64,000 bases of DNA, taken from NCBI RefSeq assembly GCF_050320075.1, contig NZ_CP190018.1; one strand, given 5' to 3'. Below, piece by piece: positions 1,047 to 58,470 of the stretch (position 1 is the stretch's first letter; each line of letters begins with the position of its first letter). The stretch comes from Escherichia coli. Its GTDB lineage: Bacteria > Pseudomonadota > Gammaproteobacteria > Enterobacterales > Enterobacteriaceae. The translations under genes were made by a program, and so were the position numbers. The notes under the pieces were generated by a model. It was not told the origin of the DNA, made no database searches, and saw only the letters and a program-made list of their open reading frames with translations.

Positions 1047-3023
1047 ATGCAGCTTAATCATATCGTTAAAAGTCTGCTAATAACGGGATTATTCACCACC
1101 AGTTCTTTACCTCTCCTCGCGGCGGAAGCTCCTAAAGACGCCACCGCAGCCACGCAACAAGCAAACAATTTACTCTACAACCAGTTGCCGTTTGCCGATA
1201 ACACTGACTTTACTGATGCCCATAAAGGTTTTATTGCCCCTATCCCTCAAGACGTGATTAAGGGCGAACAAGGGAATGTTATCTGGGATCCACAACATTA
1301 CGCTTTTATCAAAGAAGGCGATAAAGCCCCTGATACGGTGAATCCGAGTTTATGGCGTCAGGCGCAACTGATAAATATCAGCGGGTTATTCGAAGTAACT
1401 GAAGGTGTCTATCAGATTCGCAATCTCGATCTATCAAATATGACCATCATTGAAGGCAAAGAGGGTATTACCGTCGTTGATCCCCTTGTTTCAGCAGAAA
1501 CAGCCAAAGTGGGTATGGATCTCTATTACAAAAATCGCGGCAAAAAACCGGTAGTGGCGGTTATCTATACACACAGTCATGTCGATCACTACGGTGGTGT
1601 TCGTGGCGTAATTGATGAAGCTGACGTTAAATCAGGCAAAGTTAAAATCTATGCGCCAGCCGGATTTTTGGAGGAAGCCGTTTCCGAAAACATCATGGCT
1701 GGCAATGTTATGAGCCGACGAGCCAGTTATATGTATGGCAACTTATTGAAACCTGATGTTAAAGGCCAGGTGGGGGCTGGACTGGGAACGACTACTTCAG
1801 CAGGAACAGTCACGTTGATTGCTCCTACTAACTACATCACCAAAACCGGACAAATAGAAACTATTGACGGGTTGACTTATGATTTCCTGATGGCGCCAGG
1901 TTCTGAAGCGCCTTCTGAAATGCTGTGGTTTATTGAAGAAAAGAAACTGATCGAAACCGCTGAAGATGTCACGCACACCCTTCATAACACCTATTCGCTG
2001 CGTGGGGCTAAAATTCGCCAACCGCTGCCGTGGTCAAAATATATTAATGAAGCTCTCAATTTGTGGGGTGATAAAGCCGAGATTATTCTCGCTCAACATC
2101 ACTGGCCAACCTGGGGCAACGATAACGTGGTCAAACTGCTTAAAAGCCAGCGTGATTTGTATCGTTACATCAATGATCAAACTCTGCGCATGGCTAATCA
2201 AGGGATGACCCGTGATGAAATTGCCGCAAACTTTAAACTGCCCTCTTCACTGGCTAACACCTGGGCGAATCGCGGCTATTACGGTTCGGTAAGTCATGAC
2301 GTGAAAGCAACTTACGTGCTTTATCTCGGCTGGTTTGATGGTAACCCCGCGACGCTTGATGAACTGCCGCCAGAAGAAGGCGCAAAAAAATTCGTCGAGT
2401 ATATGGGCGGTGCTGATGCCATTTTACAGAAAGCCACACAGGATTATGACCAGGGTAATTTCCGCTGGGTTGCCCAAGTTGTTAGTAAGGTGGTGTTTGC
2501 CGATCCAAACAACCAGGCAGCGAGAGATCTGGAAGCTGATGCGCTTGAGCAGTTAGGCTATCAGGCTGAATCTGGGCCGTGGCGTAATTTCTATCTCACT
2601 GGTGCACAGGAATTGCGTAATGGCGTACAAAAATTACCAACACCAAATACTGCCAGCCCAGACACCGTGCGTGCGATGACGCCGGAGATGTTCTTTGATT
2701 ATCTTGCCGTCCATATTAATGGTGAGAAAGCGGCAGATGCCAAAACCGTGTTGAATTTCGATTTTGGTGAAGATGGCGGCACCTATAAAGTGGAGCTTGA
2801 AAATGGTGTTCTCAATCATACCGCTGGTGTAGAGGCTTCGGATGCTGATGCCACTATCACTCTGTCTCGTGATGTATTGAACAAAATTGTACTGAAAGAA
2901 GAGACGCTGAAAGAAGCCACGGCCAAAGGAGATGTCAAAATTACTGGCAATGAGGAAAAACTCAACGAGCTGTTAGGTTATATGGATAATTTTGAATTTT
3001 GGTTCAATATAGTGACACCATAA
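1047..3023 (+). CDS. alkyl/aryl-sulfatase, metallo-beta-lactamase fold (YjcS/BDS1-like), with N-terminal signal peptide
   Basis: 658 aa; signal peptide MQLNHIVKSLLITGLFTTSSLPLLAAEA; HSHVDHYGG metal-binding motif; GGAG Shine-Dalgarno upstream. Confidence 0.8.
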   Translation: MQLNHIVKSLLITGLFTTSSLPLLAAEAPKDATAATQQANNLLYNQLPFADNTDFTDAHKGFIAPIPQDVIKGEQGNVIWDPQHYAFIKEGDKAPDTVNPSLWRQAQLINISGLFEVTEGVYQIRNLDLSNMTIIEGKEGITVVDPLVSAETAKVGMDLYYKNRGKKPVVAVIYTHSHVDHYGGVRGVIDEADVKSGKVKIYAPAGFLEEAVSENIMAGNVMSRRASYMYGNLLKPDVKGQVGAGLGTTTSAGTVTLIAPTNYITKTGQIETIDGLTYDFLMAPGSEAPSEMLWFIEEKKLIETAEDVTHTLHNTYSLRGAKIRQPLPWSKYINEALNLWGDKAEIILAQHHWPTWGNDNVVKLLKSQRDLYRYINDQTLRMANQGMTRDEIAANFKLPSSLANTWANRGYYGSVSHDVKATYVLYLGWFDGNPATLDELPPEEGAKKFVEYMGGADAILQKATQDYDQGNFRWVAQVVSKVVFADPNNQAARDLEADALEQLGYQAESGPWRNFYLTGAQELRNGVQKLPTPNTASPDTVRAMTPEMFFDYLAVHINGEKAADAKTVLNFDFGEDGGTYKVELENGVLNHTAGVEASDADATITLSRDVLNKIVLKEETLKEATAKGDVKITGNEEKLNELLGYMDNFEFWFNIVTP

Positions 3024-3035
3024 ATTTACTGCATA

Positions 3036-3062
3036 CCGGGCAGGTATCCTGCCCTTTTTTGG
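3036..3062 (+). terminator. rho-independent terminator after the sulfatase gene
   Basis: GC hairpin GGGCAGG-TATC-CTGCCC followed by a T run. Confidence 0.5.
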
Positions 3063-3069
3063 TTAAAAA

Positions 3070-4167
3070 ATGGCTGAACGAAGAAAAACTCATCACTCAT
3101 GGAAAACCCGCCGCGATATGGTTATTCGCGGCATGACGATTAGTTTGCCATGGTTTGCTTTTATCAATGTCAGTTTTGCATTGATAATTTTGCTGCGCCG
3201 TGTTCTGTTTAATGACCTTACTCCACCCTGGTTAAATGAAAAAAGCCTTATACATTCTATTGATATATCTGCAACGGGTATTCTGCTGATTTGCAGTGGT
3301 TTACTACTCATCCCTCGGCAAAAAACATTACCTATCCAGGTGCTATTAGTTGCCCTGAGCCTGCTATGGTCATGGTGTAGTTATCACTTTATTGCGTACT
3401 GGACGCTGCAGTTTGCTTATCCACTATGTGTATTATTAATGCTTAGTGGCGTTGTCGCACTTTATTTCCATACCCCATCATTGCTCGCATTTGTCATTCC
3501 CTTATGGTTCACCACTCCAATAGCGAGTCTTATGCTTAATCAACAGATCAATATTCATTTTGCTGTTGTATGGTGTATTTTTTCACTGGCGCTATATGGT
3601 GGGCGACTCATTTTGTTACGTTGGTTTGAAGAAGCATGGGTACAAAACAGTTATAACAACCAGTTAATTAATCGCCTTGATGCATTAGCACATCGTGATC
3701 CTTTAACTGGGATAGCAAACCGACGTGCAATGAACAGTATCTTACACGACGCGATGGATAACGGCGGGTCATTTGCTCTTATTATGCTGGATGTCGATTT
3801 TTTTAAACGTTACAACGACACTTACGGGCATCCTGCTGGGGATCGTTGTCTAATACAAGTTGCCGACGCTCTACAGCGTTCAACTCGCCAGTCGGAGGAT
3901 GTTGTTGTCCGTTATGGTGGCGAAGAGTTTGCCATCATACTTTTTAATGCAACATTGCCGGAAGCAGAGACGGTAGCAGCCAGAGTGAAGCAAGAACTTA
4001 AACTGGCAGCTATCCCACATCAGGCATCTGCTGTTAATGCATTTGTTACGGTTAGTCAGGGGATTACCTGTTCTGCTCCCGCAAAAACGGCTGAACAAAT
4101 TATTTCAGATGCCGACGCTGCGTTATACCGGGCGAAAGAAAGTGGGCGAAATCGATGGGCTTTATAA
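3070..4167 (+). CDS. membrane-anchored diguanylate cyclase (GGDEF domain, GGEEF active-site motif); start codon uncertain
   Basis: Hydrophobic multi-helix N-terminal half; C-terminal GGDEF domain with RYGGEEF and DxLTG-like motifs. Confidence 0.8.
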   Translation: MAERRKTHHSWKTRRDMVIRGMTISLPWFAFINVSFALIILLRRVLFNDLTPPWLNEKSLIHSIDISATGILLICSGLLLIPRQKTLPIQVLLVALSLLWSWCSYHFIAYWTLQFAYPLCVLLMLSGVVALYFHTPSLLAFVIPLWFTTPIASLMLNQQINIHFAVVWCIFSLALYGGRLILLRWFEEAWVQNSYNNQLINRLDALAHRDPLTGIANRRAMNSILHDAMDNGGSFALIMLDVDFFKRYNDTYGHPAGDRCLIQVADALQRSTRQSEDVVVRYGGEEFAIILFNATLPEAETVAARVKQELKLAAIPHQASAVNAFVTVSQGITCSAPAKTAEQIISDADAALYRAKESGRNRWAL

Positions 4168-4240: not shown

Positions 4241-4792
4241 CTATCTTCTTAGCGATGTCTTTCTGGTATCACATTGGATCGGTGCAATTATTTTTCCTTT
4301 AATACCCATTATGTTAAGAAATTCAGAAACAGCTGTAATCTCATTGTTTTTTTCATTCGTCTTGATCTTCCAAGGAATCTGACTGTGCATTATTGAGAAC
4401 ACACTAATAACGTGAATCGCTCCCTTGCGACGACTCTTGTCATAAGAGTACCGGAGCGTTTTTCCATCAATTGCAATGACGTCTTTATCATCTGAAGAAT
4501 GGCAGTCAAGCATCCAGTTAATAAAGCACTCATAAAATTTTTCAGGACTGATACAGGATACAACTCTGGCAATGGTATCGTGAACAGGAATACCATTATC
4601 AAAATCACCATATTGCTTCAAAAAATCGAGATGTGTTTCCCCAAAATCCTCTATATCTTCCCAGCCTTCTGCACCCGAAATAACGGCACAAATAGTCAAC
4701 AGTAGAATATCCGATAATTTATGTTCCACTTTCCAGGCTTGTCTGTAATCGGGGATAATAGAAATATGTCCCATCAATTTTTTAAGTTCCAT
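4241..4792 (-). pseudogene. H-repeat-associated (ISAs1-family transposase-like) gene remnant, N-terminal ~183 codons only
   Basis: Aligns to the first half of the 378-codon H-rpt frame at 10493..11629, then diverges and stops. Confidence 0.7.
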
Positions 4793-4939
4793 TTTGTTCT
4801 CCTTAATTATGTAAGGAGTATTTGATCATGTATACGCAATAAAAAACAGCTTCAGGTAATGAGGAATATCTCAATTGTTAAACATAAAATGCGAATTGTC
4901 TAGTACAAAAAAGCAGCGTTACGTGATCTTTCCGTGGAT

Positions 4940-5065
4940 CGTCAAATTGTTCGAGAGAAAATACCAACATGATGGATTTTACTGTAAAAGTAATGTCGTA
5001 GTTTAAAAACTCATCATCCGGTAAAGCCTTGTGGGGCGTGGGCTTTCATACTTTTACCCTGATGT
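4940..5065 (-). repeat. H-rpt element upstream-end repeat, copy A
   Basis: About 120 bp closely similar to 11680..11810, each just upstream of an H-rpt reading frame. Confidence 0.6.
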
Positions 5066-5377
5066 CTGCTATACGCCGGACACCCTTTACGTAGCATTCG
5101 GAATTCACCCGTAAATTTATCACGGCGGTATCACGAAACCTCCGGTTCTGATGCCGCTTAGGACTAACGACACGTCAACACAGGTTCGGGTTTATTCATT
5201 TCACTGTATCTCATATAATCTGAGCACTCCCCCTGCGCTCGCTACTATGACTCTTTACCACAGCAACCGGGGTTGTTTGGGATCGGCTTTCAACAGCAGA
5301 TCCCGGTGGCTATTGCAAGTAAGTCTACTTTCCACATCAGTGTTACTGACACAGAAAATAATGAGTTATGATCCTTG

Positions 5378-5863
5378 TCATATTTTTAATATAGCCCCAT
5401 GAGCTATAGGATCAAAACCTTCTAACCATGAGGTGTTTTTATCGAATAATGCATCTGTTATATTTATATCGCCATATCTATCACATAATAAATTAGCGCC
5501 ACATAAGTCAGCACCAGAAAAATTTGAATCTTTAACGTCTGCATTGCAAAAGGTTGAATTAGTTAATATAGCACCCTCAAAGTTTGCACCTATTGACCTT
5601 GAATTACTAAAGTCACTTCCAGTGAAATCTGAGTTATTAAGAATAGCGTTCATCAGAGCCGCATTGCGAAAGACAGCATTTCTAGTTGATGTATGTTGAA
5701 TCATTACATTTCTTAAATGGGAATTTTCAAATTTCGCCCCATCAAGACAATAACCATTGAGGATGGCACGATGTAGATCCATCCCGCTAAAATCATATCC
5801 AGCAAGAGTGGTACTATCTATATCAAGAAATTTATTGGTTATTAAAAACGCGATTCTTATCAT
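5378..5863 (-). CDS. pentapeptide-repeat protein, putative immunity protein for the adjacent Rhs C-terminal toxin
   Basis: 161 aa with tandem A(D/N)LxG/F-type pentapeptide repeats; its start overlaps the Rhs stop by 4 bp (ATGA); AT-rich. Confidence 0.75.
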
Positions 5864-8800
5864 CTATTCCCCCAATCATCTAACTCCGGAAAAATTTGGC
5901 TAAACGGATATAGTGGTGCCGATAATGGACGCGTACCTGGCCGCTCAGGAGGAAGTTTATCACATAACAGACCCGCAACCATCCTGTGATTACCATTAAC
6001 AATCACATTCCCATCCATATCAACCGGTGGTGCTCCACTACCATCTTCCAGCATTTGTACGTAGTGAGCTACTACGGGTACTGAGACTTTTTGTTGTACT
6101 GTCAACAAGGGACTGTTGGCCACAACCATCCTGATGTTTTCAGGTGTCGTAGGTAAACATTTAGTCTTCTCTTGACTAAAGGTATCATCCCACAATTTTG
6201 TTAAACCCATCACTGCCTGTTGTCTGTATTTATCCATGGGGTCAGCAATCAACCAAGATGGACCTGACTGCTCTATGGAATCTTCTCCGGAGAGACCCAA
6301 CGGATCTATCTTAGTAGTTGGATTCAATGGATACTGATACAGGTTCCATGCACCTCTTAGCCCAATGGGATCCTGGGTGATATACCGCCCCTGCAACGGG
6401 TCATAGTACCGGTTGCGGTTATAGTACAGCCCCGACTCCTCATCATACTGCTGCCCCGGCAGACGGTACGGCTGTTGCAGTTGCTGCGCGCTGGTTTCGC
6501 CCAGCAGGTTTCCCCACTCGTCATACTCCCCCTGCCACGCCGTTTCCCCTTCCGGGCTGATGAGCGCCTGCGGCAGCCCCCGGTGGTCGCAGTGGTAAAG
6601 ATGAAGTGTCCTCTCCGGGATGTATTCCGCCTCCATCTGGTTTTTCATCTGTTCCGCCGTCAGCCCGCACTGCTGAAGCCATGCCTCACTCTCCGCACTC
6701 ACCGCACCCGCGCGCAGTTCCCGCTCCAGCCTCCCCAGCATCACCGACAGCTCCGCCGGTAGCGTCACCCCCGTGTCCTCCTGCAACACCTCCGCCAGAC
6801 TCCGGTGCCGCGCCTTCGCCTGTTCACCATTCTCTGTTTCGATTCTGATGAGCGGCGTGAAGCTCCCCGGCTGGTATACCGTCTGGATACGCGTGGTGCC
6901 GGTCTGTACCGTCGTCAGCCTGTCACCGTCCCACCCGTACCAGGTCTCCTCCGGTTTACGCGACAGCGACATCCACCCCGTCAGGTCACGCTCCCGCCGC
7001 CACACCCGTTTCCCCGTCCGGCGGCCCAGCGGGTCATAGAGGTAGCGGCTCTCCACCTGTGGCTCGCCGTGCTGTATCCGCGTGTAGAACACCAGGCGGT
7101 GCTGGCTGTCGTAATGGTAGTGGTGCGTCCGCTCGTCGTGCATCCGTATCACCCCTTCCGGGATACGGTCCGTCTTCTCCGCCAGCCTGCCGTATTCATC
7201 GTAGCGGTAGACATAGTGCGCATCTTCCGTGATGCGGTTATCCGGCCACGCCGTGAAGGTGCTGTCCGGGTGCAGTTCCGGGTCCGGCAGCCGGTTTCCT
7301 GCCGGGTCCGTCGCATACGGGATATCGATATCCAGGTTCGCCGCCGTGGTGTGAACGCCCGTCAGTCTTCCCGTGTCGCTGTAACGGTACTTCCGGCTCT
7401 CCTGCGGGCCGCTGATGCGCACCAGTTGCCCGTTATCGTTCCACGTATACTCACGGTCAAGCTGCGGAAGGTTCAGGTGCCTGCTCCGGAGCTGCCCTGT
7501 GAGGGTGTACGCCGTGGCCTGTTCGTACCCCGCTGTACTGCCCGCCCCGCCGAAGCTGCGGGCCGTCTCACGGTGCAGCCGGTCCCGCGTGTACTCGACC
7601 AGCGGCGTTCCGCCCAGCTTCATCCCCGCAAGATAACCGCTGCCATACGTCAGCCACTCCACCGGCGGCAGACCGTCCGGCTCCTGACGGGTCGCCAGCC
7701 CCTGTTCGCTGTAGACGTGCCTCGTCTCATGCTCCCACAGCATCTCCCCCGTCTCCTGGTTCTCCACCGTCTGCCGTTCGCCCGTCAGGCGGCCTTTATC
7801 GTCATAGCCGTAGTGGACCGCCACACGGTGGCCTTCGCTCAGGTGGCTGATTTCTGTCAGCCAGCCGTGGTCGTCATACTGCCACTGCTCCGCCGGGTCG
7901 CCGTTCACCGTCCGGTGCGTGATGCGCCCGGCGTCATCGTAGTACCACTGCGTGACCTGCCCCTCATCCTCGCTGCGGATGAGCTGCCCTGTGGCGCTGT
8001 ACCGGTAACGCTGTGTCCTGCCGTCAAAGCCGCGCTGCTCCGTCAGCCTGTCCACCGGGTCATACCGGAACGTGGACTGGCTGCCGTTCTCGTTGGTCAG
8101 CACGGTGATGCGCCCGGCGGCGTCATACTCCATGCTGCGCGTCAGTCCGCCCTGCGTGGTGCTGACGGCCTTTCCCCACGCATCATACTGTGTCTCACTC
8201 CGGCTGCCGTTCGGGGCAATGATAGCGGTGAGGTCGCCTGCGGCGCTGTACTCATAACGGGTTTCACGTCCCTGCGCATCCTTCTGACTGACCAGTTGAC
8301 CACGCGGGTTATAACTGCTGTAAGTGCTGATGCCTTCCTCCCGGTGAACCGCCGTCCTCTGACCGTACCGGTCGTATTCATACCGCGTCGTGTACCCTGA
8401 ACAGTCCGTAAATGCCTGAAGCTGACCGTACCGGTTTCGCGTTATTCTCCGCCTCACCCCGGTTCCGTCTTCCACCGCACAGGGCAGGCCACTGCGGGAA
8501 GAATCATAAAACCAGCGCGTAATGTTACCGTTGCGCGAGACCTCTTCCGCCAGCCTGCCCTGACGGTCATATTTCCGGCTGCGGCGCAGCCCGTCCGGGT
8601 ACGTCACTGACGTCAGTTGCAACTGGTTGTTGTAACCATACCGTACCGTCCTGCCGTCCGGCAGTATCACTGAAGTCAGCTTTCCCGACGCCATATGCAG
8701 CCGGTACTCCGTCCGCCGTCCCGCCGCATCCGTCTGCGCCTTCAGCCTCCCCGCCTCATCATACTCGCTGCGGGTGATGCTCCCGTCCCCATACTCCTTC

Positions 8801-10071
8801 TTCACCACCCGCTTCAGGCCGCCCTCGCCCTCCGTGTACAGCACCTCCCGCCGGTTCAGGCTGTCCGTGATGGTCACGCGGTCCTGCCCGTACTCAAAGC
8901 GGTAGTCCAGCCCCTCCGGGTTGACCTGCTCCGTCACCCGACCGGTATCATCATACCGGTAGCGGCTCTCCGGCCTCCCCGCATAATGGTGCGCCACCAT
9001 CCGCCCGGCGTGCTCCGCATCATAAGTAAACCCGCGCACCTGCGTCCCGCTGCGGTCATACACCGCCCGCAGTTCTCCGCTGGCCGTGTACGTGTAGCGC
9101 GCCAGCGGCGCAGTCGGCAGTTCATCCGGGTATGCCGGGTCGTGTGTCAGCCATACCGCCTCCAGCCGGATACCGTTATCGGCACCGTACTCTGTACCGG
9201 TGGGCAGCGTGTCGGGGAAAAACTGAGAAGAGGAAACAGAACGGGGACTGGCCGGAGAAGATAAAGAAGACTCGCGCTGTTTACGGAAGGCTTTCGCCCG
9301 CTGCGCCTGTGTGGTCAGCGCCAGATGAAAACGGCGGCCCGCGCCGTCCGTCACCCCCGTCACCGCGCCCGCCGCTTCCCCCTCTGCCGCCCGGTGGAAG
9401 GCCAGCGTCCGCCCGAAGCCGTCCACCACGCCCGTCAGCACCCGGTATGCGGGCGGCTCCGGCGGCAGCACCTCGTCCGCCTCCGGCACCCGCTCCGGCC
9501 AGCCGAGTATCCACCACGGCCCCTGAAGGCTGTTTGTCGCCAGGTACACATGCGGGCTTAAGCGGAGACTCTCCGGCAGCACCTGCCAGAGCGCGCTTAG
9601 CGGCTGCGAACTGTGCTGCTCCGCCACCCCGCCCCTTGCCAGCCAGAACGACTCGCTGCGGCTGTAGCTTATCTCGCCGGGAAACAGCGGCTCAAAGTGA
9701 ATGCTCCTGCCGCCACTGTCGTTGAGTATCAGTTCCCGCTCATGAACCTGTAAGCGGATATCGAAGGGCGCTTTCCAGCCGGGACCAAACACCCCCACCG
9801 GCGCGGGTGTCCTGGTCCGGTAGCTGCTGTAGGCGCGGGAAAGAATAAACGGCAACGGGCCGGGCAGCGCAAGATCCGTCTCGCCCGGCAGCACCTTCGC
9901 ACCCAGTAGCGGGTTCACCGGGTTACCCTTCTGCTCCTCCACCGGGCTGTTGGGACACACCGAGCAGGCCACTCCCGTCGGCGCACCTATCAGCACCCCC
10001 GCTGAACCCTGCACAATATCCAGTCCCTTGCGGGTCATATCGCCCTGTCGCGCCGCCGGTTTTCCGCTCAT
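5860..10071 (-). CDS. full-length Rhs family protein: PAAR-like N-terminus, YD-repeat core, DPLGL boundary, variable C-terminal toxin domain
   Basis: 1403 aa; conserved Rhs N-terminus [13 protein letters not shown]; many YD/RYxYD repeats; PxxxxDPLGL motif; GC-rich core. Confidence 0.9.
5863..6291 (-). other. Rhs C-terminal variable toxin domain (~143 aa after DPLGL), family not recognised
   Basis: Sequence after the DPLGL motif is unrelated to the conserved core and lower in GC. Confidence 0.6.
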
Positions 10072-10492
10072 GGTTTATTCCTTAAATTATTTATGGTTTT
10101 ATTCTGAGTGCAATCCATACTGATTCATAACCAGTGAATAAGATTTCCCCGAATAATCTATATAAATTAGCGAAGTCCTCTTCACTAATTAACCGTAAAA
10201 TCCCGTACCAATGAAATATAAAAATAACCACCCACACAAATTTATTGCAAATATTATTTATTATTGTATATACATCATTCACTGAACGTTCTCAAACTGC
10301 ATACCTTAGAACCATCAATTAAAGCCACAACAAAAAAAATCGATTACTTTATGTCGCATGACAAATATGAATTACATATTAATCAACCTTAAAAACAATC
10401 ATCTCTTATAATTAACAGCATACCATGAGAAACACAAAATCAATTTACCATGCATACCAGGAGCATAATTAACCTCTCACCGCAGGGCGAAA

Positions 10493-11629
10493 TCATGAAG
10501 GCCCGCAGCCAGCAAGGATTAGAGAAAGGTATTCATTCTTACGTCCTGCCCGCTTTTGCTTGCGTTTAATACCCGCTTTAAAGCTATTCTCTGCGGTCAG
10601 TAAATTCATCGCGATATGTCGACAAACTGCCAGATTTTCTCCCGCTTCTCCACGAACAATCTGGCATTCATCTTCCCGCATCCCCATATCAAGTCGCCAG
10701 TGCAGTTGATTTTCTACCGACCAGTGTGCTCGTGTTGCTTCCAGGAGTTCTTTCGCCGTAAGCGTCACCGAACTTATGTAGTAGCGAAGAATACACTTCT
10801 CTGATTTCACCGCTGTTTCTCCTTCCTGTCTGCTCGCCAGCACTATTCCTATCGTGCTCAGCTCTGACCATTCATAAGCTAAATCACCCAGAGCGGTTAA
10901 ATCATGGCTCACAATGCAGCATCGTGTATCTTCCCGTCCATGCCCTTTTTCCTGCGTGCTGTAACTGTCATACCTCTCACCCAGCCACATTGTCGGCGAG
11001 TACCCGTTATCAAACGCCTCCGCTAATTTTCCCTGATTTCCTTTCAGCGCCAGCAGGTAACCGGCTTTCTTTTTCAGAATTTCACGGGCGATTATATGCT
11101 GGCAACCCATTGCATCCAGCGTGACCAGACACCCTTTTAATTCCAGCAACTGGAGCCGTTCCGGGATCGCCGTTATCTCATTCGATTTTGCCCCTGTTTT
11201 CACCTGCCCCAAAACCAGACGATTTTCTGCGCTAAAAGCACTGACCCTATGGATCACGGCATTACGTTTCGATTTATCGTAAGTACCCCGTAATGACTTA
11301 CCATCAATCGCCACAACAGAGCCTTCAGACAACGTGTGACAGTCCTTCATCTACTGGATAAAAAGGGGCTGTAATTGTTTTGCTGAAATCATTCCCATCA
11401 CTCGGGCAATCGTGTGATGGGAGGGGGTGCCATTTTCAAAATCACCATACAGGCGTAACCATTCCAGATGCTCCTCACCAAAATCAGCAATTTCTTCCCA
11501 TCCTTCAGCGCCACCGATAATGGCGGTGATCGTCAGAAAAAGGATATCCGCCAGGCTGTAACTGGTTTTCCAGGACTGGCGATAATCGTGAATAATTGAA
11601 ATTTGATCCAAAAGGCTTAGTCCGTTCAT
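10493..11629 (-). pseudogene. H-repeat-associated protein (ISAs1-family transposase-like), 378 codons interrupted by an in-frame TAG at 11351..11353
   Basis: ORFs 11351..11629 and 10493..11350 are contiguous in one frame, separated only by TAG; the fragment at 4241..4792 has W at that position. Confidence 0.7.
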
Positions 11630-12040: not shown

Positions 12041-12647
12041 TTAAATAATGGCATTCCTTTTTAGTATTTCTTGTAACGTTGGTATCGGACATACAGCATC
12101 AGCAATCGCACTGATATTCGCGGCATTATCTTGAAACCATTCATGCCCCGGTCCCCATATGCGCATAACGCAGAGATAAGGGTAGCTGATCGCCAAACGC
12201 ATAAGGTTCAGCAGTGAGCTACGAATTCAACCAGATATAAAACGATTTTCGATATTCAATAACATTCTTCTTTAACTGTTCGGGTGCGTCAGGAGCCCAA
12301 CGCTCAGGGTAATCGGCGAAAGTGAATGTTGGATAGACATTAGCAACCAGCCAGACCAATAGCCGTTGAAACTGCTGACGTTCGGCGCGCCCAACCGGTG
12401 GCGCAAGGTCCGGGCGACGATCGAGAACCATCAATGCAATCGCCGCTGTCTCCGTCATAATCTCGTCATTTTCCAGCGCCAGTGTCGGAATCTGACACAA
12501 CGGGTTCAGGGTTTTCAATAACTCGCGTGAGGTTCCCTCGTGGTCAAAACCACTGACATCAACGAACTGATAAGGAATATCAGCCAGTGTTAGCATCAGC
12601 TCACTGATTGTAGAGCCCCATCCGGGTACGCCATACACCTTAATCAT
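12041..12647 (-). pseudogene. yncG: glutathione S-transferase homologue, disrupted by an in-frame TAG (12219..12221) and a downstream frameshift
   Basis: 142-aa N-terminal GST-like ORF ends at TAG; the GST C-terminal remnant CVMRIWGPGHEWFQDNAANISAIADAV continues in another frame to a stop near 12041. Confidence 0.6.
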
Positions 12648-52186: not shown

Positions 52187-52564
52187 TTAGTCATACTGTA
52201 TTTGCGGAGAAACTGTTGATAAAACATCAATAACATCATTTGACGTGGCAATGACATAATGCTCGATCACATTATTTTTATAAATTTCACAACTTTGCAT
52301 AGTAAACCATGCAAAGTAGGCGGAATTCACTACTCTATAGATCCCCGTTTGGTTAATACCGTGAATTCCTGACATTCCTAACAAATCACCTTCGTCAGTA
52401 ACACGAAATGAATGTATCCAGTCAAATGATAACTTAACTTCTGACTTGATCGCCGGACATATGAGGGTAAGTTCAAGCCTGGCATTTTTATAGCTTAAAT
52501 CTGATAGTTCGGCATTTTTAAAAGACAATGAAGTCGGAGTGATATTTATAAAACATTCATCCAT
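52187..52564 (-). CDS. hypothetical small protein (125 aa), AT-rich islet gene C
   Basis: Uninterrupted ORF co-directional with the two genes upstream; no recognisable family. Confidence 0.5.
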   Translation of the reverse strand: MDECFINITPTSLSFKNAELSDLSYKNARLELTLICPAIKSEVKLSFDWIHSFRVTDEGDLLGMSGIHGINQTGIYRVVNSAYFAWFTMQSCEIYKNNVIEHYVIATSNDVIDVLSTVSPQIQYD

Positions 52565-52683
52565 GTTAATACCCCTTCATATATGAGACTGCTCTCGATA
52601 GACGACACATTAACCTTCTGCAAAAACGGTGCGAGTCTGTTTACGTACCATGTATAATCGATGGACATTACTGTGATTTGAAA

Positions 52684-53142
52684 TTACCTTGTCCAGTCAT
52701 CAACCATTTTTTTCAGGGGGAACATCTGCAATACATTCATTAATGCGAAATATAATTCCCCCTGTGGCACCCATATTCTAATCTTCTCATCCCCTAAAAT
52801 GAAAAATTGCAATTGACGTTTGAAACCTAATGTTTTATCTTCAGGTAATTCAGCTTGTATTTTTTTATTGATATCATCAAGGTAGATGTGATGACAATAC
52901 TCATCAAACATACTCATTACTTCCAGACCGTTTACAGATGTCCATCTTTGTTCACTTTCCCAATAAACAAGAACCGGTTTGCGGCAGGTATATCTGCCTA
53001 AAAAGCGCTGAATGTGTTCTTCCTGATTCTCGTAAAATATTGCCTCTGCATTCGAGATTTGCCGACGCATTCGCCAGCGGATTTTTTCTTCATAAAAAGA
53101 CAATTTGTCGCATTTGGTATTACTCAAATTCATTGTCAACAA
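52684..53142 (-). CDS. hypothetical small protein (about 150 aa), AT-rich islet gene B; start uncertain
   Basis: Uninterrupted ORF; overlaps the end of islet gene A. Confidence 0.5.
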   Translation of the reverse strand: MLTMNLSNTKCDKLSFYEEKIRWRMRRQISNAEAIFYENQEEHIQRFLGRYTCRKPVLVYWESEQRWTSVNGLEVMSMFDEYCHHIYLDDINKKIQAELPEDKTLGFKRQLQFFILGDEKIRIWVPQGELYFALMNVLQMFPLKKMVDDWTR

Positions 53143-53512
53143 CTCGCATGGTTTTAAATATAAAATTTAAAAAACCGCCAAACAAATGAAGTGAAATTTC
53201 ATACTTCTTTGCCTTATAAACAATTACCGCATCTTTAATATTACCTGCATTTTGGTTATCTATAAGTTCAGCAATATCCATAACCTGCGATAAATGTTCC
53301 ACTCCCGTAAACTCGAACCTTTTTCGTTCCCTTCCGGCTGTAAATTCATCAACATAAAGTTCTGCCGTCAATATAAAATTATACTCGGTGTGGTGACATT
53401 CCATTCTGGTTTCTACTAAAACACCATCATGCCAGATAATATTGTCTAAATTTTTCATACTATTAATCCAATCCATTACTTTCTGATAAAATTTCCTCTG
53501 GAAGTTTTTCAT
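53120..53512 (-). CDS. hypothetical small protein (130 aa), AT-rich islet gene A
   Basis: Uninterrupted ORF; first gene of the three-gene islet. Confidence 0.5.
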   Translation of the reverse strand: MKNFQRKFYQKVMDWINSMKNLDNIIWHDGVLVETRMECHHTEYNFILTAELYVDEFTAGRERKRFEFTGVEHLSQVMDIAELIDNQNAGNIKDAVIVYKAKKYEISLHLFGGFLNFIFKTMRVVDNEFE

Positions 53513-53685
53513 AGAAAGAGATTAAAGCCTGACCGACGCAATCAAGCTCTATTATTCGCTCATAATACGATCTCATTAAAATATCATGCTTACTCATTGC
53601 AATACGTCCTGTTTACCATGGGCAGAGTATGAATGTAACTTATGTAAAATAGTACCGCCCTTGCTATTTTTCAGAATTCATAAAG

Positions 53686-54755
53686 GCTGAATTTACAATC
53701 CAAGTGCAACAAAAAAAGAAGTACTCATCAACTAGAATATAATTTTGTTTCCACACAAAAACCATTTCCAAATGATGAGTACTTCCTACCGACATCTTAC
53801 AATAAACGAGCGAGAAAAGATAATGATTTTACTCGCACAGGGCAAAAAACAAGCAGAAATTGCCAAAGCACTGGGACGTAGCTCCAGCACCATTTCTCGC
53901 GAGCTGAAACGACACGCTCTAGAAAGCTACAGTGCAACGAACGCACAAAACAGCTATTTGAAGCATCGTCAAAATAGCAAAGCACAGCGCAAATTAGAGC
54001 AGCCTGAATATTTCAATTTGGTGCAAGAAAAGTTTCTGACAGAAAACTGGTCGCCCGAACAAATCAGCGCACGATTAAAATTGGAAAAATCTGAATTATC
54101 CATTAGTTATTCAACCATTTATCGTGGTATTTATTCAGGGTTGTTTGATATAGGCGAACGCAAAGCCAGTCGCAAACTGCGCCACAAAGGCAAAACACGG
54201 CATACAAAAAATCATCATGAAAAACGTGGCAAAATTCAGATATCCAACCATTTGAACGACCGTCCCATTTCGGCGCAAAATCGCAGTCGCTTTGGACATT
54301 GGGAAGCCGATACCGTACTGGGTAAAGCGGGTGGAGCTTGTTTGCTGACGCTGACGGAACGCAAAAGTCGTTTTGAGTTGGTGAAGAAAATTCCTGCCAA
54401 AAAAGCCGAAGCAGTCCAAAAAGCCATGATTGAATTGCTGGATTCACATATATTGCGGTCAATTACGCCAGACCGTGGTAAAGAATTTGCCCAACATCGT
54501 TTGGTAACAGAAGCACTGGGTGTAGAATTTTACTTCCCCGAGCCGCATCAACCGTGGACACGGGGAACGAATGAAAATACAAATGGGTTACTTCGTGAAT
54601 ACTTTCCGAAGCACCAAGACATCAATCAGTGGAGCGAAGTTGATATTCAACAGGTGATCAATAAACTGAATTTACGACCACGTAAATGTTTAGGTTGGAA
54701 AACACCTTATGAAGTTTACTTCAAAAAATCGTTGCACTTGGTTTGACAATTCAAG
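53686..54755 (+). mobile_element. ISApl1 (IS30 family), upstream copy, transposase intact
   Basis: 1070 bp; imperfect terminal inverted repeats TGAATTTACAATCCAAGTGCAAC / TGAATTGTCAAACCAAGTGCAAC (reverse complement). Confidence 0.85.
53823..54746 (+). CDS. tnpA: ISApl1 transposase (IS30 family, DDE); 307 aa from MILLAQGKKQ, alternative upstream starts at 53772/53775 possible
   Basis: HTH region LGRSSSTISRELKR; C-terminal DDE integrase core. Confidence 0.8.
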   Translation: MILLAQGKKQAEIAKALGRSSSTISRELKRHALESYSATNAQNSYLKHRQNSKAQRKLEQPEYFNLVQEKFLTENWSPEQISARLKLEKSELSISYSTIYRGIYSGLFDIGERKASRKLRHKGKTRHTKNHHEKRGKIQISNHLNDRPISAQNRSRFGHWEADTVLGKAGGACLLTLTERKSRFELVKKIPAKKAEAVQKAMIELLDSHILRSITPDRGKEFAQHRLVTEALGVEFYFPEPHQPWTRGTNENTNGLLREYFPKHQDINQWSEVDIQQVINKLNLRPRKCLGWKTPYEVYFKKSLHLV

Positions 54756-54941
54756 ATACAAATTATAAATACTCTCAAGTGTATATTCAGTATGGGATTG
54801 CGCAATGATTGCCTAATAAAATTTCTGAAATATTTCTGTATCGCATAATTTTTTATATCAGATAAATTGTACTGGATTTCTTAAAAAATTGCAGTATAAT
54901 TGCCGCAATTATCCCACCGTTTATTTTTTGAGTAGTTTCTC

Positions 54942-56567
54942 ATGATGCAGCATACTTCTGTGTGGTACCGACGCTCGGTCAGTCCGTTTGTTCTTGTGGC
55001 GAGTGTTGCCGTTTTCTTGACCGCGACCGCCAATCTTACCTTTTTTGATAAAATCAGCCAAACCTATCCCATCGCGGACAATCTCGGCTTTGTGCTGACG
55101 ATCGCTGTCGTGCTCTTTGGCGCGATGCTACTGATCACCACGCTGTTATCATCGTATCGCTATGTGCTAAAGCCTGTGTTGATTTTGCTATTAATCATGG
55201 GCGCGGTGACCAGTTATTTTACTGACACTTATGGCACGGTCTATGATACGACCATGCTCCAAAATGCCCTACAGACCGACCAAGCCGAGACCAAGGATCT
55301 ATTAAACGCAGCGTTTATCATGCGTATCATTGGTTTGGGTGTGCTACCAAGTTTGCTTGTGGCTTTTGTTAAGGTGGATTATCCGACTTGGGGCAAGGGT
55401 TTGATGCGCCGATTGGGCTTGATCGTGGCAAGTCTTGCGCTGATTTTACTGCCTGTGGTGGCGTTCAGCAGTCATTATGCCAGTTTCTTTCGCGTGCATA
55501 AGCCGCTGCGTAGCTATGTCAATCCGATCATGCCAATCTACTCGGTGGGTAAGCTTGCCAGTATTGAGTATAAAAAAGCCAGTGCGCCAAAAGATACCAT
55601 TTATCACGCCAAAGACGCGGTACAAGCAACCAAGCCTGATATGCGTAAGCCACGCCTAGTGGTGTTCGTCGTCGGTGAGACGGCACGCGCCGATCATGTC
55701 AGCTTCAATGGCTATGAGCGCGATACTTTCCCACAGCTTGCCAAGATCGATGGCGTGACCAATTTTAGCAATGTCACATCGTGCGGCACATCGACGGCGT
55801 ATTCTGTGCCGTGTATGTTCAGCTATCTGGGCGCGGATGAGTATGATGTCGATACCGCCAAATACCAAGAAAATGTGCTGGATACGCTGGATCGCTTGGG
55901 CGTAAGTATCTTGTGGCGTGATAATAATTCGGACTCAAAAGGCGTGATGGATAAGCTGCCAAAAGCGCAATTTGCCGATTATAAATCCGCGACCAACAAC
56001 GCCATCTGCAACACCAATCCTTATAACGAATGCCGCGATGTCGGTATGCTCGTTGGCTTAGATGACTTTGTCGCTGCCAATAACGGCAAAGATATGCTGA
56101 TCATGCTGCACCAAATGGGCAATCACGGGCCTGCGTATTTTAAGCGATATGATGAAAAGTTTGCCAAATTCACGCCAGTGTGTGAAGGTAATGAGCTTGC
56201 CAAGTGCGAACATCAGTCCTTGATCAATGCTTATGACAATGCCTTGCTTGCCACCGATGATTTCATCGCTCAAAGTATCCAGTGGCTGCAGACGCACAGC
56301 AATGCCTATGATGTCTCAATGCTGTATGTCAGCGATCATGGCGAAAGTCTGGGTGAGAACGGTGTCTATCTACATGGTATGCCAAATGCCTTTGCACCAA
56401 AAGAACAGCGCAGTGTGCCTGCATTTTTCTGGACGGATAAGCAAACTGGCATCACGCCAATGGCAACCGATACCGTCCTGACCCATGACGCGATCACGCC
56501 GACATTATTAAAGCTGTTTGATGTCACCGCGGACAAAGTCAAAGACCGCACCGCATTCATCCGCTGA
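54942..56567 (+). CDS. mcr-1: phosphoethanolamine--lipid A transferase MCR-1 (mobile colistin resistance)
   Basis: 541 aa; MMQHTSVWYRRSVSPFVLVAS N-terminus, five-helix membrane domain, sulfatase-like catalytic domain with the nucleophile Thr in the CGTSTAYS motif. Confidence 0.95.
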   Translation: MMQHTSVWYRRSVSPFVLVASVAVFLTATANLTFFDKISQTYPIADNLGFVLTIAVVLFGAMLLITTLLSSYRYVLKPVLILLLIMGAVTSYFTDTYGTVYDTTMLQNALQTDQAETKDLLNAAFIMRIIGLGVLPSLLVAFVKVDYPTWGKGLMRRLGLIVASLALILLPVVAFSSHYASFFRVHKPLRSYVNPIMPIYSVGKLASIEYKKASAPKDTIYHAKDAVQATKPDMRKPRLVVFVVGETARADHVSFNGYERDTFPQLAKIDGVTNFSNVTSCGTSTAYSVPCMFSYLGADEYDVDTAKYQENVLDTLDRLGVSILWRDNNSDSKGVMDKLPKAQFADYKSATNNAICNTNPYNECRDVGMLVGLDDFVAANNGKDMLIMLHQMGNHGPAYFKRYDEKFAKFTPVCEGNELAKCEHQSLINAYDNALLATDDFIAQSIQWLQTHSNAYDVSMLYVSDHGESLGENGVYLHGMPNAFAPKEQRSVPAFFWTDKQTGITPMATDTVLTHDAITPTLLKLFDVTADKVKDRTAFIR

Positions 56568-56614
56568 TTTCTCCCTGTATTTTTTCCAAACCCACCGCAC
56601 ACTCCATTCGTATT

Positions 56615-57361
56615 ATGGGCGGTGGGGTGGGGTTTGTTATGCCGTATTTATCAAATAAACGCCTACTTGCTGAGATGAGTATCGCTCTTGTCATGGCGAT
56701 CGTTGCCACGCTGACCCTTGAGCACAGTCAGATTGATCTGATGGTCGCTGATTGGTTTTATCTGGGTATGGGGCATTGGATGGTTGCCAAGCAAGCTTTT
56801 TTGCCAGATTTGCTACTGTATTCTGGACTAAAAAAGCTGCTGATGGCGATGCTGATCTACTTGCTGGTTGCGACCATTTGCCGTGCTTATCATGAGAAAA
56901 AGGGCAATGCTATCACTGCCAAGTGGCTTGTCCCAGTGACAAAATTTCGCGTGCGTGAGCTTGCGTATCTGGTGCTGACTTTGATCCTAGTGCCGACAGT
57001 TGTCGCGTCATTGAAGGCATATACTCATGTGGTCTGCCCTGTGCATTTGACGATTTTTGATGGTACGCTGCCGTATTTGCCGATGCTTGATAGTATGCGT
57101 AACACCATTCCTGATAAGTGCTTTCCTGCGGCGCATGCCAGTAGCGGATTTGCGCTGTTTGCCTTTGCGTTTGCGCCAAGTTTGCGCCGCCGTCGTGGTG
57201 CGATCATCATCGTGGTGATGGCATTGGGCTGGGCGATGGGCTGCTATAAGATGATTATTGGCGATCATTTTTTGAGCCATACGGTGGTGTCGATGATGCT
57301 TGCGTGGGCGATGTCGGCAGGGCTTGCGTGGGTGTTTTTTAAGAAGGGTGAACAAGTTTAA
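56615..57361 (+). CDS. pap2: PAP2-family membrane phosphatase (start may be 56639)
   Basis: 248-aa hydrophobic protein directly downstream of mcr-1, as in the mcr-1 cassette. Confidence 0.8.
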   Translation: MGGGVGFVMPYLSNKRLLAEMSIALVMAIVATLTLEHSQIDLMVADWFYLGMGHWMVAKQAFLPDLLLYSGLKKLLMAMLIYLLVATICRAYHEKKGNAITAKWLVPVTKFRVRELAYLVLTLILVPTVVASLKAYTHVVCPVHLTIFDGTLPYLPMLDSMRNTIPDKCFPAAHASSGFALFAFAFAPSLRRRRGAIIIVVMALGWAMGCYKMIIGDHFLSHTVVSMMLAWAMSAGLAWVFFKKGEQV

Positions 57362-57364
57362 TCG

Positions 57365-58434
57365 GCTGAATTTACAATCCAAGTGCAACAAAAAAAGAAG
57401 TACTCATCAACTAGAATATAATTTTGTTTCCACACAAAAACCACTTCCAAATGATGAGTACTTCCTACCGACATCTTACAATAAACGAGCGAGAAAAGAT
57501 AATGATTTTACTCGCACAGGGCAAAAAATAAGCAGAAATTGCCAAAGCACTGGGACGTAGCTCCAGCACCATTTCTCGCGAGCTGAAACGACACGCTCTA
57601 GAAAGCTACAGTGCAACGAACGCACAAAACAGCTATTTGAAGCATCGTCAAAATAGCAAAGCACAGCGCAAATTAGAGCAGCCTGAATATTTCAATTTGG
57701 TGCAAGAAAAGTTTCTGACAGAAAACTGGTCGCCCGAACAAATCAGCGCACGATTAAAATTGGAAAAATCTGAATTATCCATTAGTTATTCAACCATTTA
57801 TCGTGGTATTTATTCAGGGTTGTTTGATATAGGCGAACGCAAAGCCAGTCGCAAACTGCGCCACAAAGGCAAAACACGGCATACAAAAAATCATCATGAA
57901 AAACGTGGCAAAATTCAGATATCCAACCATTTGAACGACCGTCCCATTTCGGCGCAAAATCGCAGTCGCTTTGGACATTGGGAAGCCGATACCGTACTGG
58001 GTAAAGCGGGTGGAGCTTGTTTGCTGACGCTGACGGAACGCAAAAGTCGTTTTGAGTTGGTGAAGAAAATTCCTGCCAAAAAAGCCGAAGCAGTCCAAAA
58101 AGCCATGATTGAATTGCTGGATTCACATATATTGCGGTCAATTACGCCAGACCGTGGTAAAGAATTTGCCCAACATCGTTTGGTAACAGAAGCACTGGGT
58201 GTAGAATTTTACTTCCCCGAGCCGCATCAACCGTGGACACGGGGAACGAATGAAAATACAAATGGGTTACTTCGTGAATACTTTCCGAAGCACCAAGACA
58301 TCAATCAGTGGAGCGAAGTTGATATTCAACAGGTGATCAATAAACTGAATTTACGACCACGTAAATGTTTAGGTTGGAAAACACCTTATGAAGTTTACTT
58401 CAAAAAATCGTTGCACTTGGTTTGACAATTCAAG
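57365..58434 (+). mobile_element. ISApl1, downstream copy, transposase inactivated
   Basis: Co-linear with the upstream copy at a fixed offset of 3679 bp; at least two substitutions seen, including the nonsense change. Confidence 0.85.
57502..58425 (+). pseudogene. tnpA: ISApl1 transposase pseudogene, codon 10 CAA->TAA (57529..57531)
   Basis: GGCAAAAAATAAGCAGAAATT here versus GGCAAAAAACAAGCAGAAATT in the upstream copy; remainder of the frame matches copy 1. Confidence 0.8.
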
Positions 58435-58436
58435 AG

Positions 58437-58470
58437 AAAAAACCCGGCGCTAAATGCTTACCGGGTTTTA
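58437..58470 (-). terminator. rho-independent terminator of hrpA
   Basis: Hairpin CCCGG...CCGGG with flanking A and T tracts just downstream of the hrpA stop. Confidence 0.55.

Follow-up and report, generated by a model that had tools for sequence, protein, structure and literature searches.

A putative complete Rhs polymorphic-toxin element with a pentapeptide-repeat immunity gene in the yncG-pptA slot of an Escherichia coli chromosome

Does the long Rhs reading frame that lies between yncG and pptA in an Escherichia coli chromosome (NCBI RefSeq assembly GCF_050320075.1, contig NZ_CP190018.1) encode a complete weapon, and what kind of toxin would it carry? The frame is part of a stretch of 64,000 nucleotides, which is called the window here. 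An initial annotation, made from the letters alone, had read it as an intact Rhs protein of 1403 residues with a G+C-rich conserved core and an exchangeable A+T-rich tip. As a whole, the locus is best explained as a complete Rhs polymorphic-toxin element in the yncG-pptA slot, delivered by a type VI secretion system (T6SS) and accompanied by its own immunity gene, and I regard this reading, which relies on analogy with better studied Rhs proteins, as very likely. Taken as an Rhs element, it is an ordinary and well-described E. coli toxin gene plus immunity gene, of a kind already known. Nothing about it is new at that level, since the locus, the architecture, the G+C mosaic, and the exchange of tips have been in the literature for decades and RefSeq already has this very protein for 143 genomes. 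The tip belongs to a common family that has no curated model. Together with its immunity partner, it is a modest lead and the only part that could repay bench work.

On the minus strand, an open reading frame (ORF) of 1403 codons plus the stop codon (5860..10071) starts with ATG and has no internal stop codon. Its product is identical to that of the RefSeq coding sequence WP_001563834.1, annotated as 'RHS element core protein'. The NCBIfam model of the same name (NF041261) matches residues 1-1260 with 2513 bits, above the cut-off of 2000. Thus, the frame is full length, as had been claimed. Pfam RHS_repeat was found in 11 stretches of the protein (E = 1e-76), and DUF6531 and RHS were also matched; after the DPLGL motif follows an unrelated tip, so the proposed architecture of a YD-repeat core and a tip holds. 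Could the open frame be due to a sequencing error that masks a frameshift? The 8-kb Rhs locus is present at an identity of at least 99% in 143 of 5426 complete E. coli genomes, where the next gene is annotated as 'pentapeptide repeat-containing protein'. Because the same locus recurs in so many independent complete genomes, the open frame is not a sequencing artefact, and the hidden error that the initial annotation had allowed for is ruled out.

The closest solved structure to the Rhs protein is that of Pseudomonas aeruginosa Tse5 (PDB 8cp6, E = 1.5e-120). Tse5 is cut into three pieces: a 5-kDa 'PAAR-like' N-terminal peptide (residues 1-47), which is essential for secretion, a shell (residues 48-1168), and the toxin (PMC10684867). 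DUF6531 is the N-terminal plug of the Tse5 shell, and the toxin is freed after L1168 by an aspartyl protease with D1141 and D1164 (PMC10684867). The start of the Tse5 shell chain, PVNPMLG, aligned with P51-VNPLLG of the window protein. D1141, D1164, and L1168, the last shell residue, aligned with D1234, D1256, and L1260, respectively. Since both shell ends and both catalytic aspartates align, cleavage is predicted between N50 and P51 and between L1260 and S1261, with D1234 and D1256 as the putative catalytic residues. The element can then be divided into the following parts.

9922..10071, minus strand: N-terminal peptide (residues 1-50), PAAR-like, the presumed VgrG-docking piece, with the predicted cleavage between N50 and P51
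9694..9927, minus strand: DUF6531 domain (residues 49-126; Pfam PF20148, E = 1e-18), N-terminal plug of the shell
6292..9921, minus strand: G+C-rich YD-repeat shell, or core (residues 51-1260), delimited by RHS_repeat, NF041261, the Tse5 match, and G+C content
6292..6525, minus strand: Rhs-associated core (residues 1183-1260; TIGR03696, E = 1.4e-22), the aspartyl-protease C-terminal plug with D1234 (in DPIGL) and D1256 (in DPLGL)
6157..6291, minus strand: linker past the predicted cleavage site (residues 1261-1305), predicted with low confidence (pLDDT 52-64)
5863..6156, minus strand: C-terminal toxin domain (residues 1306-1403) with the motif Q..VS.P...Y...L..G...PP(I/V)..DG..IV(D/N)GNHR..AG and the end DWGNR
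5378..5863, minus strand: immunity gene for an acidic pentapeptide-repeat beta-helix protein of 161 aa, whose ATG overlaps the Rhs stop codon (ATGA)

Thus, the window protein resembles Tse5 in the short N-terminal peptide, the PVNPxLG start of the shell, the DUF6531 plug, the two catalytic aspartates, and the cleavage after DPxGL, which is predicted here. In contrast, the Tse5 toxin is a membrane pore-former to which the window tip is unrelated, and the Tse5 gene adjoins its VgrG gene. As a separate observation, the linker contains a stretch of 11 residues resembling LTKWWNDTASQ, which K-12 RhsA has at the corresponding position of its own, unrelated tip. The shared stretch may be a pre-toxin or recombination motif.

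Which secretion machine might carry the protein? The genome of Ecol_545 (NZ_CP018976.1), whose 8-kb Rhs locus is 100% identical to that of the window, has a full T6SS gene set (tssA-M), two hcp genes, and a vgrG gene beside tRNA-Asp (aspV). Directly downstream of this vgrG gene, in the T6SS island, lies another rhs gene (2716507-2721007), which aligns with the window core over 3761 nt at 89.9% identity; the two proteins agree at 39 of their first 40 positions. The vgrG-linked copy differs from the window Rhs in having another tip and a frameshift, while the yncG-pptA copy is intact. It is possible that the intact copy took over the spike from the broken one. If so, at least one genome offers a clean natural example, of modest value, of how a strain could keep its spike loaded once the vgrG-linked effector has decayed. 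A 'neighbourless' Rhs class (Rhs-Nb) is known to be related to the Rhs proteins of the T6SS2 cluster, and other E. coli Rhs-CT toxins kill via a T6SS (Ma et al. 2017, summarised in PMC6730261). The window element fits the Rhs-Nb class as it is outlined in that review rather than in the original data set: it has no adjacent vgrG or eag gene, and its core and N-terminus are close to those of a vgrG-linked Rhs. Ecol_545 also differs from K-12 in its large-scale order. Its Rhs region is oriented as in K-12 and its gadA-bcsC region is reversed (321-394 kb vs 4.04-4.09 Mb), which implies a large chromosomal inversion on this comparison of gene order; Rhs or insertion sequence copies are candidate break points.

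What does the tip do? Residues 1261-1403 had no match in Pfam, NCBIfam, or the sequences of the PDB, and a profile of 60 tip sequences returned nothing usable from the same three collections. The 60 relatives themselves had only weak matches, to DUF1015 (6 members) and to ddrB-ParB (1 member). A word-indexed homologue search with three queries returned only proteins shorter than about 260 aa; the tip family was drawn instead from an exhaustive HMMER search of 1.84 billion representatives, which yielded 328 clusters (50% identity) with E no higher than 0.001. For almost every one of the 150 clusters listed, the match lies at the extreme C-terminus of the protein, whose length varies from 73 to 2388 residues. 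Among the long carriers are a TcdB/SpvB-type protein and Rhs proteins with DUF6531, and stand-alone short ORFs in other organisms encode the tip only (P0001, P0004-P0008). The conserved part is residues 1306-1403, where Q, S, G, P, G-x-H-R, and A hardly vary and where many members end with DWGN(R/K/H). At the central motif, the family consensus reads DGNHR, against NGNHR in the window; conservation is 90-100% for G, H, and R, and the third position varies between N, H, and V.

AlphaFold modelled residues 1306-1403 with a pLDDT above 95, and a Foldseek search of the tip against the PDB found no significant match. In an hhalign comparison with human sulfiredoxin, PPI.V...GNHRY.A of the tip was placed over PPIDV...GCHRYAA (E = 0.0013, probability 18.6%). 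The tip is probably a divergent ParB/sulfiredoxin-type enzyme directed at DNA or a nucleotide. In the survey by Zhang et al. (2012), the 'Tox-ParB' tips, which occur on Rhs proteins and further carriers, have a DGHHR motif; Imm20, Imm27, and SuFu were listed as their immunity families, and a nuclease activity was conjectured (PMC3482391). Like Tox-ParB, the window tip is a C-terminal module that recurs on Rhs proteins and on other carriers, with a motif of the DG(H/N)HR type and a probable ParB/sulfiredoxin-like fold. Unlike Tox-ParB, however, it is matched by no Pfam ParB model, its family has mostly DGNHR instead of DGHHR, and a pentapeptide-repeat protein takes the place of Imm20, Imm27, and SuFu. 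The word 'pentapeptide' is absent from the accessible portion of the text of the 2012 survey (PMC3482391).

The product of the gene that follows the tip has Pfam pentapeptide repeats (PF00805, E = 1.4e-19) that build a quadrilateral beta-helix. Is this partner a peculiarity of the window? In six of the eight loci of tip relatives that were inspected, a pentapeptide-repeat homologue of about 160 aa comes next after the toxin (27-45% identity, E from 1e-17 to 1e-42). Of the other two loci, one encodes a helical protein of 96 aa and one has no co-oriented gene. The pairing holds even with toxins that are only 39-45% identical and reside on different carriers, and one of these immunity ORFs had escaped annotation. 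The pairing, conserved across loci, supports the 161-aa protein as the immunity protein, and it presumably binds the tip directly.

Pentapeptide-repeat proteins such as MfpA, Qnr, AlbG, and McbG are DNA mimics that shield targets such as gyrase. Since proteins of this type mimic DNA, the regular pairing hints that the toxin recognises DNA, and this hint at the target is testable. The window protein differs from these four in being shorter (161 aa), in falling far below the family cut-offs (33-34 bits against the Qnr and MfpA models, whose cut-offs are 240-360), and in following a toxin gene rather than acting as a resistance gene. Similar neighbours have been noted before. A 2017 survey found pentapeptide-repeat genes beside GH-E nuclease Rhs toxins and did not term them immunity genes (PMC5714182). 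In a preprint of July 2026, the immunity protein described for an Rhs tip of Stenotrophomonas (Tse6/Tsi6a) is pentapeptide-repeat-like, which is possibly a similar pairing. As a tentative proposal, which I consider doubtful as a whole, the tip might be the E. coli member of a widespread, unmodelled family of ParB/sulfiredoxin-like toxins, and a DNA-mimicking pentapeptide-repeat immunity protein might plug its nucleic-acid-binding site. If this is true, a pentapeptide-repeat protein would be recognised as an immunity protein of a polymorphic toxin, and the pair would be a tractable entry to the chemistry of ParB-type toxins.

The mosaic composition of the element was assessed along the window, whose overall G+C content is 0.491. 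The core (6291-10071) has a G+C content of 0.64, with 0.78 at third codon positions (GC3), against 0.45 (GC3 0.38) for the tip (5863-6290) and 0.344 (GC3 0.24) for the immunity gene (5378-5863). Upstream of the Rhs gene lies a further A+T-rich part.

10072..10492, minus strand: A+T-rich upstream leader, intergenic, about 420 nt, G+C 0.31; its ribosome-binding site, AAGGA, lies 7 nt ahead of the ATG

All 13 of the 500-nt windows within the core have a G+C content of 0.596-0.686, and none of the 223 such windows outside the element exceeds 0.572 (mean 0.486, standard deviation 0.047). Because every core window exceeds all the others, the core lies far outside the local distribution. The contrast of a G+C-rich core with an A+T-rich tip, immunity gene, and leader was therefore real, and the sliding windows agree with it. 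The initial annotation had also pointed to many long spurious ORFs antisense to the core. They exist as open frames: the plus strand has three stretches without a stop codon (545, 196, and 231 codons), which have neither a Pfam match nor a RefSeq annotation. Since G+C-rich sequence is poor in stop codons, long antisense frames are an expected by-product of a G+C content of 64%, and they were rejected as genes.

Is the element simply the intact form of K-12 rhsE? The flanks are yncG and ansP on one side and pptA and yddH on the other, as around rhsE. This slot is 'position 6' of Jackson et al. (2009), who counted it among the ancestral loci, and it matches their Table 3 (PMC2935791). K-12 rhsE (b1456) is annotated as a pseudogene in the same slot and lacks the N-terminal part; its alignment begins only at nucleotide 2222 of the window Rhs gene. 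The statement in the initial annotation that rhsE is a truncated pseudogene was thus correct. Calling it the equivalent locus is right for the slot and wrong for the core lineage. The window core is 80.8% identical to K-12 rhsE, 76.8% to rhsD, and 72% to rhsA, rhsB, and rhsC, while rhsE and rhsD are 95.6% identical to each other. Since the identity to rhsE is so much lower than that between rhsE and rhsD, a different core lineage occupies the same slot, and by these values the window Rhs is not simply an intact rhsE. To judge from the comparison with Ecol_545, its core belongs to the lineage of the Rhs linked to vgrG in the T6SS island and not to that of K-12 rhsE. The alignments to all K-12 cores (rhsA-E) run along the core and end at 6296-6320, which is the DPLGL motif (residues 1256-1260). 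Thus, the core is that of an Rhs protein and not merely of some other YD-repeat protein.

The locus resembles the E. coli Rhs elements described by the Hill laboratory (clade I and 'position 6' of Jackson et al. 2009), including K-12 rhsE, in its slot, in a G+C-rich core that ends with DPxGL, in an A+T-rich tip with a small downstream ORF, and in relics of ISAs1 (H-repeat) elements. It differs from K-12 rhsE in being intact where rhsE is truncated and in having another tip and immunity gene in place of the K-12 tip and ydcD. Moreover, yncH is missing from the window, and genes for a GGDEF protein and a sulfatase are present only there. The element is bordered as follows.

10493..11629, minus strand: ISAs1-family transposase pseudogene with an internal stop codon, directly upstream, between yncG and the Rhs leader
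4912..5377, no strand assigned: non-coding tail of the element, found at full length only together with the same tip and immunity module
4241..4911, minus strand: relic of an ISAs1 (H-repeat) element, truncated, on the downstream side, with 91% identity to the start of K-12 ydcC

Orphan tips downstream of the element were considered and rejected, as 4912-5377 has no noteworthy ORF or core remnant.

The fate of the tip and immunity module outside its locus was followed with a query that covers both. All 143 carrier genomes have a second match besides their own locus, and 132 of the 5426 genomes have a partial match only. In the 19 of these 132 that were listed, the match is always to one 320-nt stretch, with two pentapeptide-repeat features annotated over it. 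A single hit genome was inspected; there, this stretch corresponds to pieces of the immunity gene (95% identity, pseudogenes by annotation) in an orphan array downstream of the rhsA locus. Related pairs of toxin and immunity protein also occur on unrelated Rhs scaffolds. By this distribution, the tip and immunity module is mobile. The immunity-gene fragments and the sharp break of homology and G+C content at DPLGL are the displacement pattern of Jackson et al. 2009 (PMC2935791). The idea of a conserved core with horizontally exchanged tips is therefore well founded here: homology stops at DPLGL, the tip and immunity gene beyond it are A+T-rich, and immunity fragments remain near rhsA in the inspected genome.

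How would such an element work? The following mechanism was built by homology. The YD-repeat shell would fold round its own C-terminal toxin. The protein would then cut itself at the two predicted sites, after N50 and, by means of the aspartyl protease (D1234 and D1256), after L1260. The N-terminal PAAR-like peptide of about 50 residues would seat the shell on a VgrG spike whose gene lies in another part of the genome, and the T6SS would fire the Rhs complex into neighbouring bacteria. There, the tip of about 100 residues, probably a ParB/sulfiredoxin-like enzyme directed at nucleotides or DNA and with an essential GNHR motif, would poison the target cell, while the producer would be protected by the translationally coupled pentapeptide-repeat protein of 161 aa. 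The G+C mosaic would have arisen by recombination, at the DPxGL boundary, of a foreign conserved core with an exchangeable A+T-rich cassette of tip and immunity gene.

Several observations weigh against a delivered weapon. No vgrG gene, eag/DUF1795 chaperone gene, or T6SS gene was found in the 64-kb window, and the T6SS described above was observed in a related genome, Ecol_545, not in the window's own. A candidate secretion partner was thus found in a genome with the identical locus and not within the window. The PAAR-like N-terminus claimed by the initial annotation survives as a short peptide of about 50 residues, as in Tse5; its sequence support is weak, with 16 bits for Pfam PAAR_motif (PF05488; residues 2-29, E = 0.014), where the cut-off is 27. 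With dead ISAs1 copies on either side and a leader that is very rich in A+T, the element may be silent under most conditions. It could even be a relic that is neither expressed nor delivered, in which case the openness of the frame would reflect recent common descent of the 143 genomes and not selection. The missing vgrG and eag neighbours, the ISAs1 pseudogenes on both sides, the decay of yncG, and the loss of the N-terminal part from the K-12 Rhs at the same site would all suit a relic, and copies that are all at least 99% identical offer little divergence from which to judge selection. However, the 4.2-kb frame has stayed open while three neighbouring genes decayed, and neither the ribosome-binding site nor the coupled immunity gene is damaged. 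In addition, the N-terminal peptide matches that of a vgrG-linked copy, itself broken, in a genome with a complete T6SS, and the want of neighbours is the mark of a recognised class in a species whose other Rhs-CT toxins kill by this route. I therefore consider a silent relic unlikely. A report on Salmonella Rhs elements (PMC7043789) offers a precedent for another role, in which the tip and immunity pair would be made from an internal start and act mainly inside the producer, like a toxin-antitoxin system. The tip-only ORFs of other organisms would agree with such a role. In the window, however, the full delivery scaffold is conserved together with its cleavage sites, and no internal promoter stands out in the Rhs gene (6 promoter-like sites against 4.8 expected by chance), which makes an action inside the producer very unlikely.

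Granting a delivered toxin, the nature of the tip and the way of protection can each be read differently. The toxin domain is near neutral in net charge, which is unusual for a DNA-binding protein, and a fused immunity-linker-toxin AlphaFold model reached a pTM of 0.58, with both halves confident and the complex not confident; these two results limit the case for a DNA-directed tip held by its immunity protein. The tip might instead be a small fold of its own with another activity, for example binding or modifying a protein target. The empty profile and Foldseek searches and the neutral charge would fit this, and the GNHR motif, the alignment over the sulfiredoxin motif, and the partnership with a possible DNA mimic argue for the ParB/sulfiredoxin type; a separate fold is possible, though I hold it to be the less probable reading. 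Likewise, rather than bind the toxin, the pentapeptide-repeat protein might act in the manner of Qnr, MfpA, AlbG, and McbG and shield the target, which would be DNA gyrase or some other enzyme that handles DNA. The lack of a confident complex would be in accord with shielding. The constant place of the gene directly after the toxin gene and the low scores against the Qnr and MfpA models point the other way, and I take a shielding role to be quite improbable.

Apart from the Rhs polymorphic-toxin element, a few other features of the window were recorded. Genes for an alkyl/aryl-sulfatase and a GGDEF protein (diguanylate cyclase) occupy 1047-4167, between the truncated ISAs1 relic and pptA, and have no counterpart at the K-12 rhsE locus. 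On the other side of the element, yncG (12043-12647) is a pseudogene with a frameshift and an internal stop codon in the RefSeq annotation of the identical locus; in the window, only an ORF of 142 aa with a GST N-terminal domain is seen. Further along, at 52187-53512, three small A+T-rich ORFs (G+C 0.34-0.37), hypothetical in RefSeq and without a Pfam match, lie between ydcF and a composite transposon. This transposon, ISApl1-mcr-1.1-pap2-ISApl1 (Tn6330-like, about 53676-58445), is a chromosomal carrier of colistin resistance.

53745-54746, 54942-56567, 56615-57361, and 57637-58425: ORFs of the mcr-1.1 transposon (MCR-1 model, 1302.7 bits; cut-off 1100)

Copies on plasmids and chromosomes match the transposon at 99.8-99.9% identity. 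Among the eight complete-genome records that ranked best and were listed, none joins it to the window flanks; each covers 81% of the query, which is the transposon alone. It is inserted between the small hypothetical genes beside ydcF on one side and hrpA on the other, is missing from the same site in Ecol_545, and is of more practical interest than the Rhs element.

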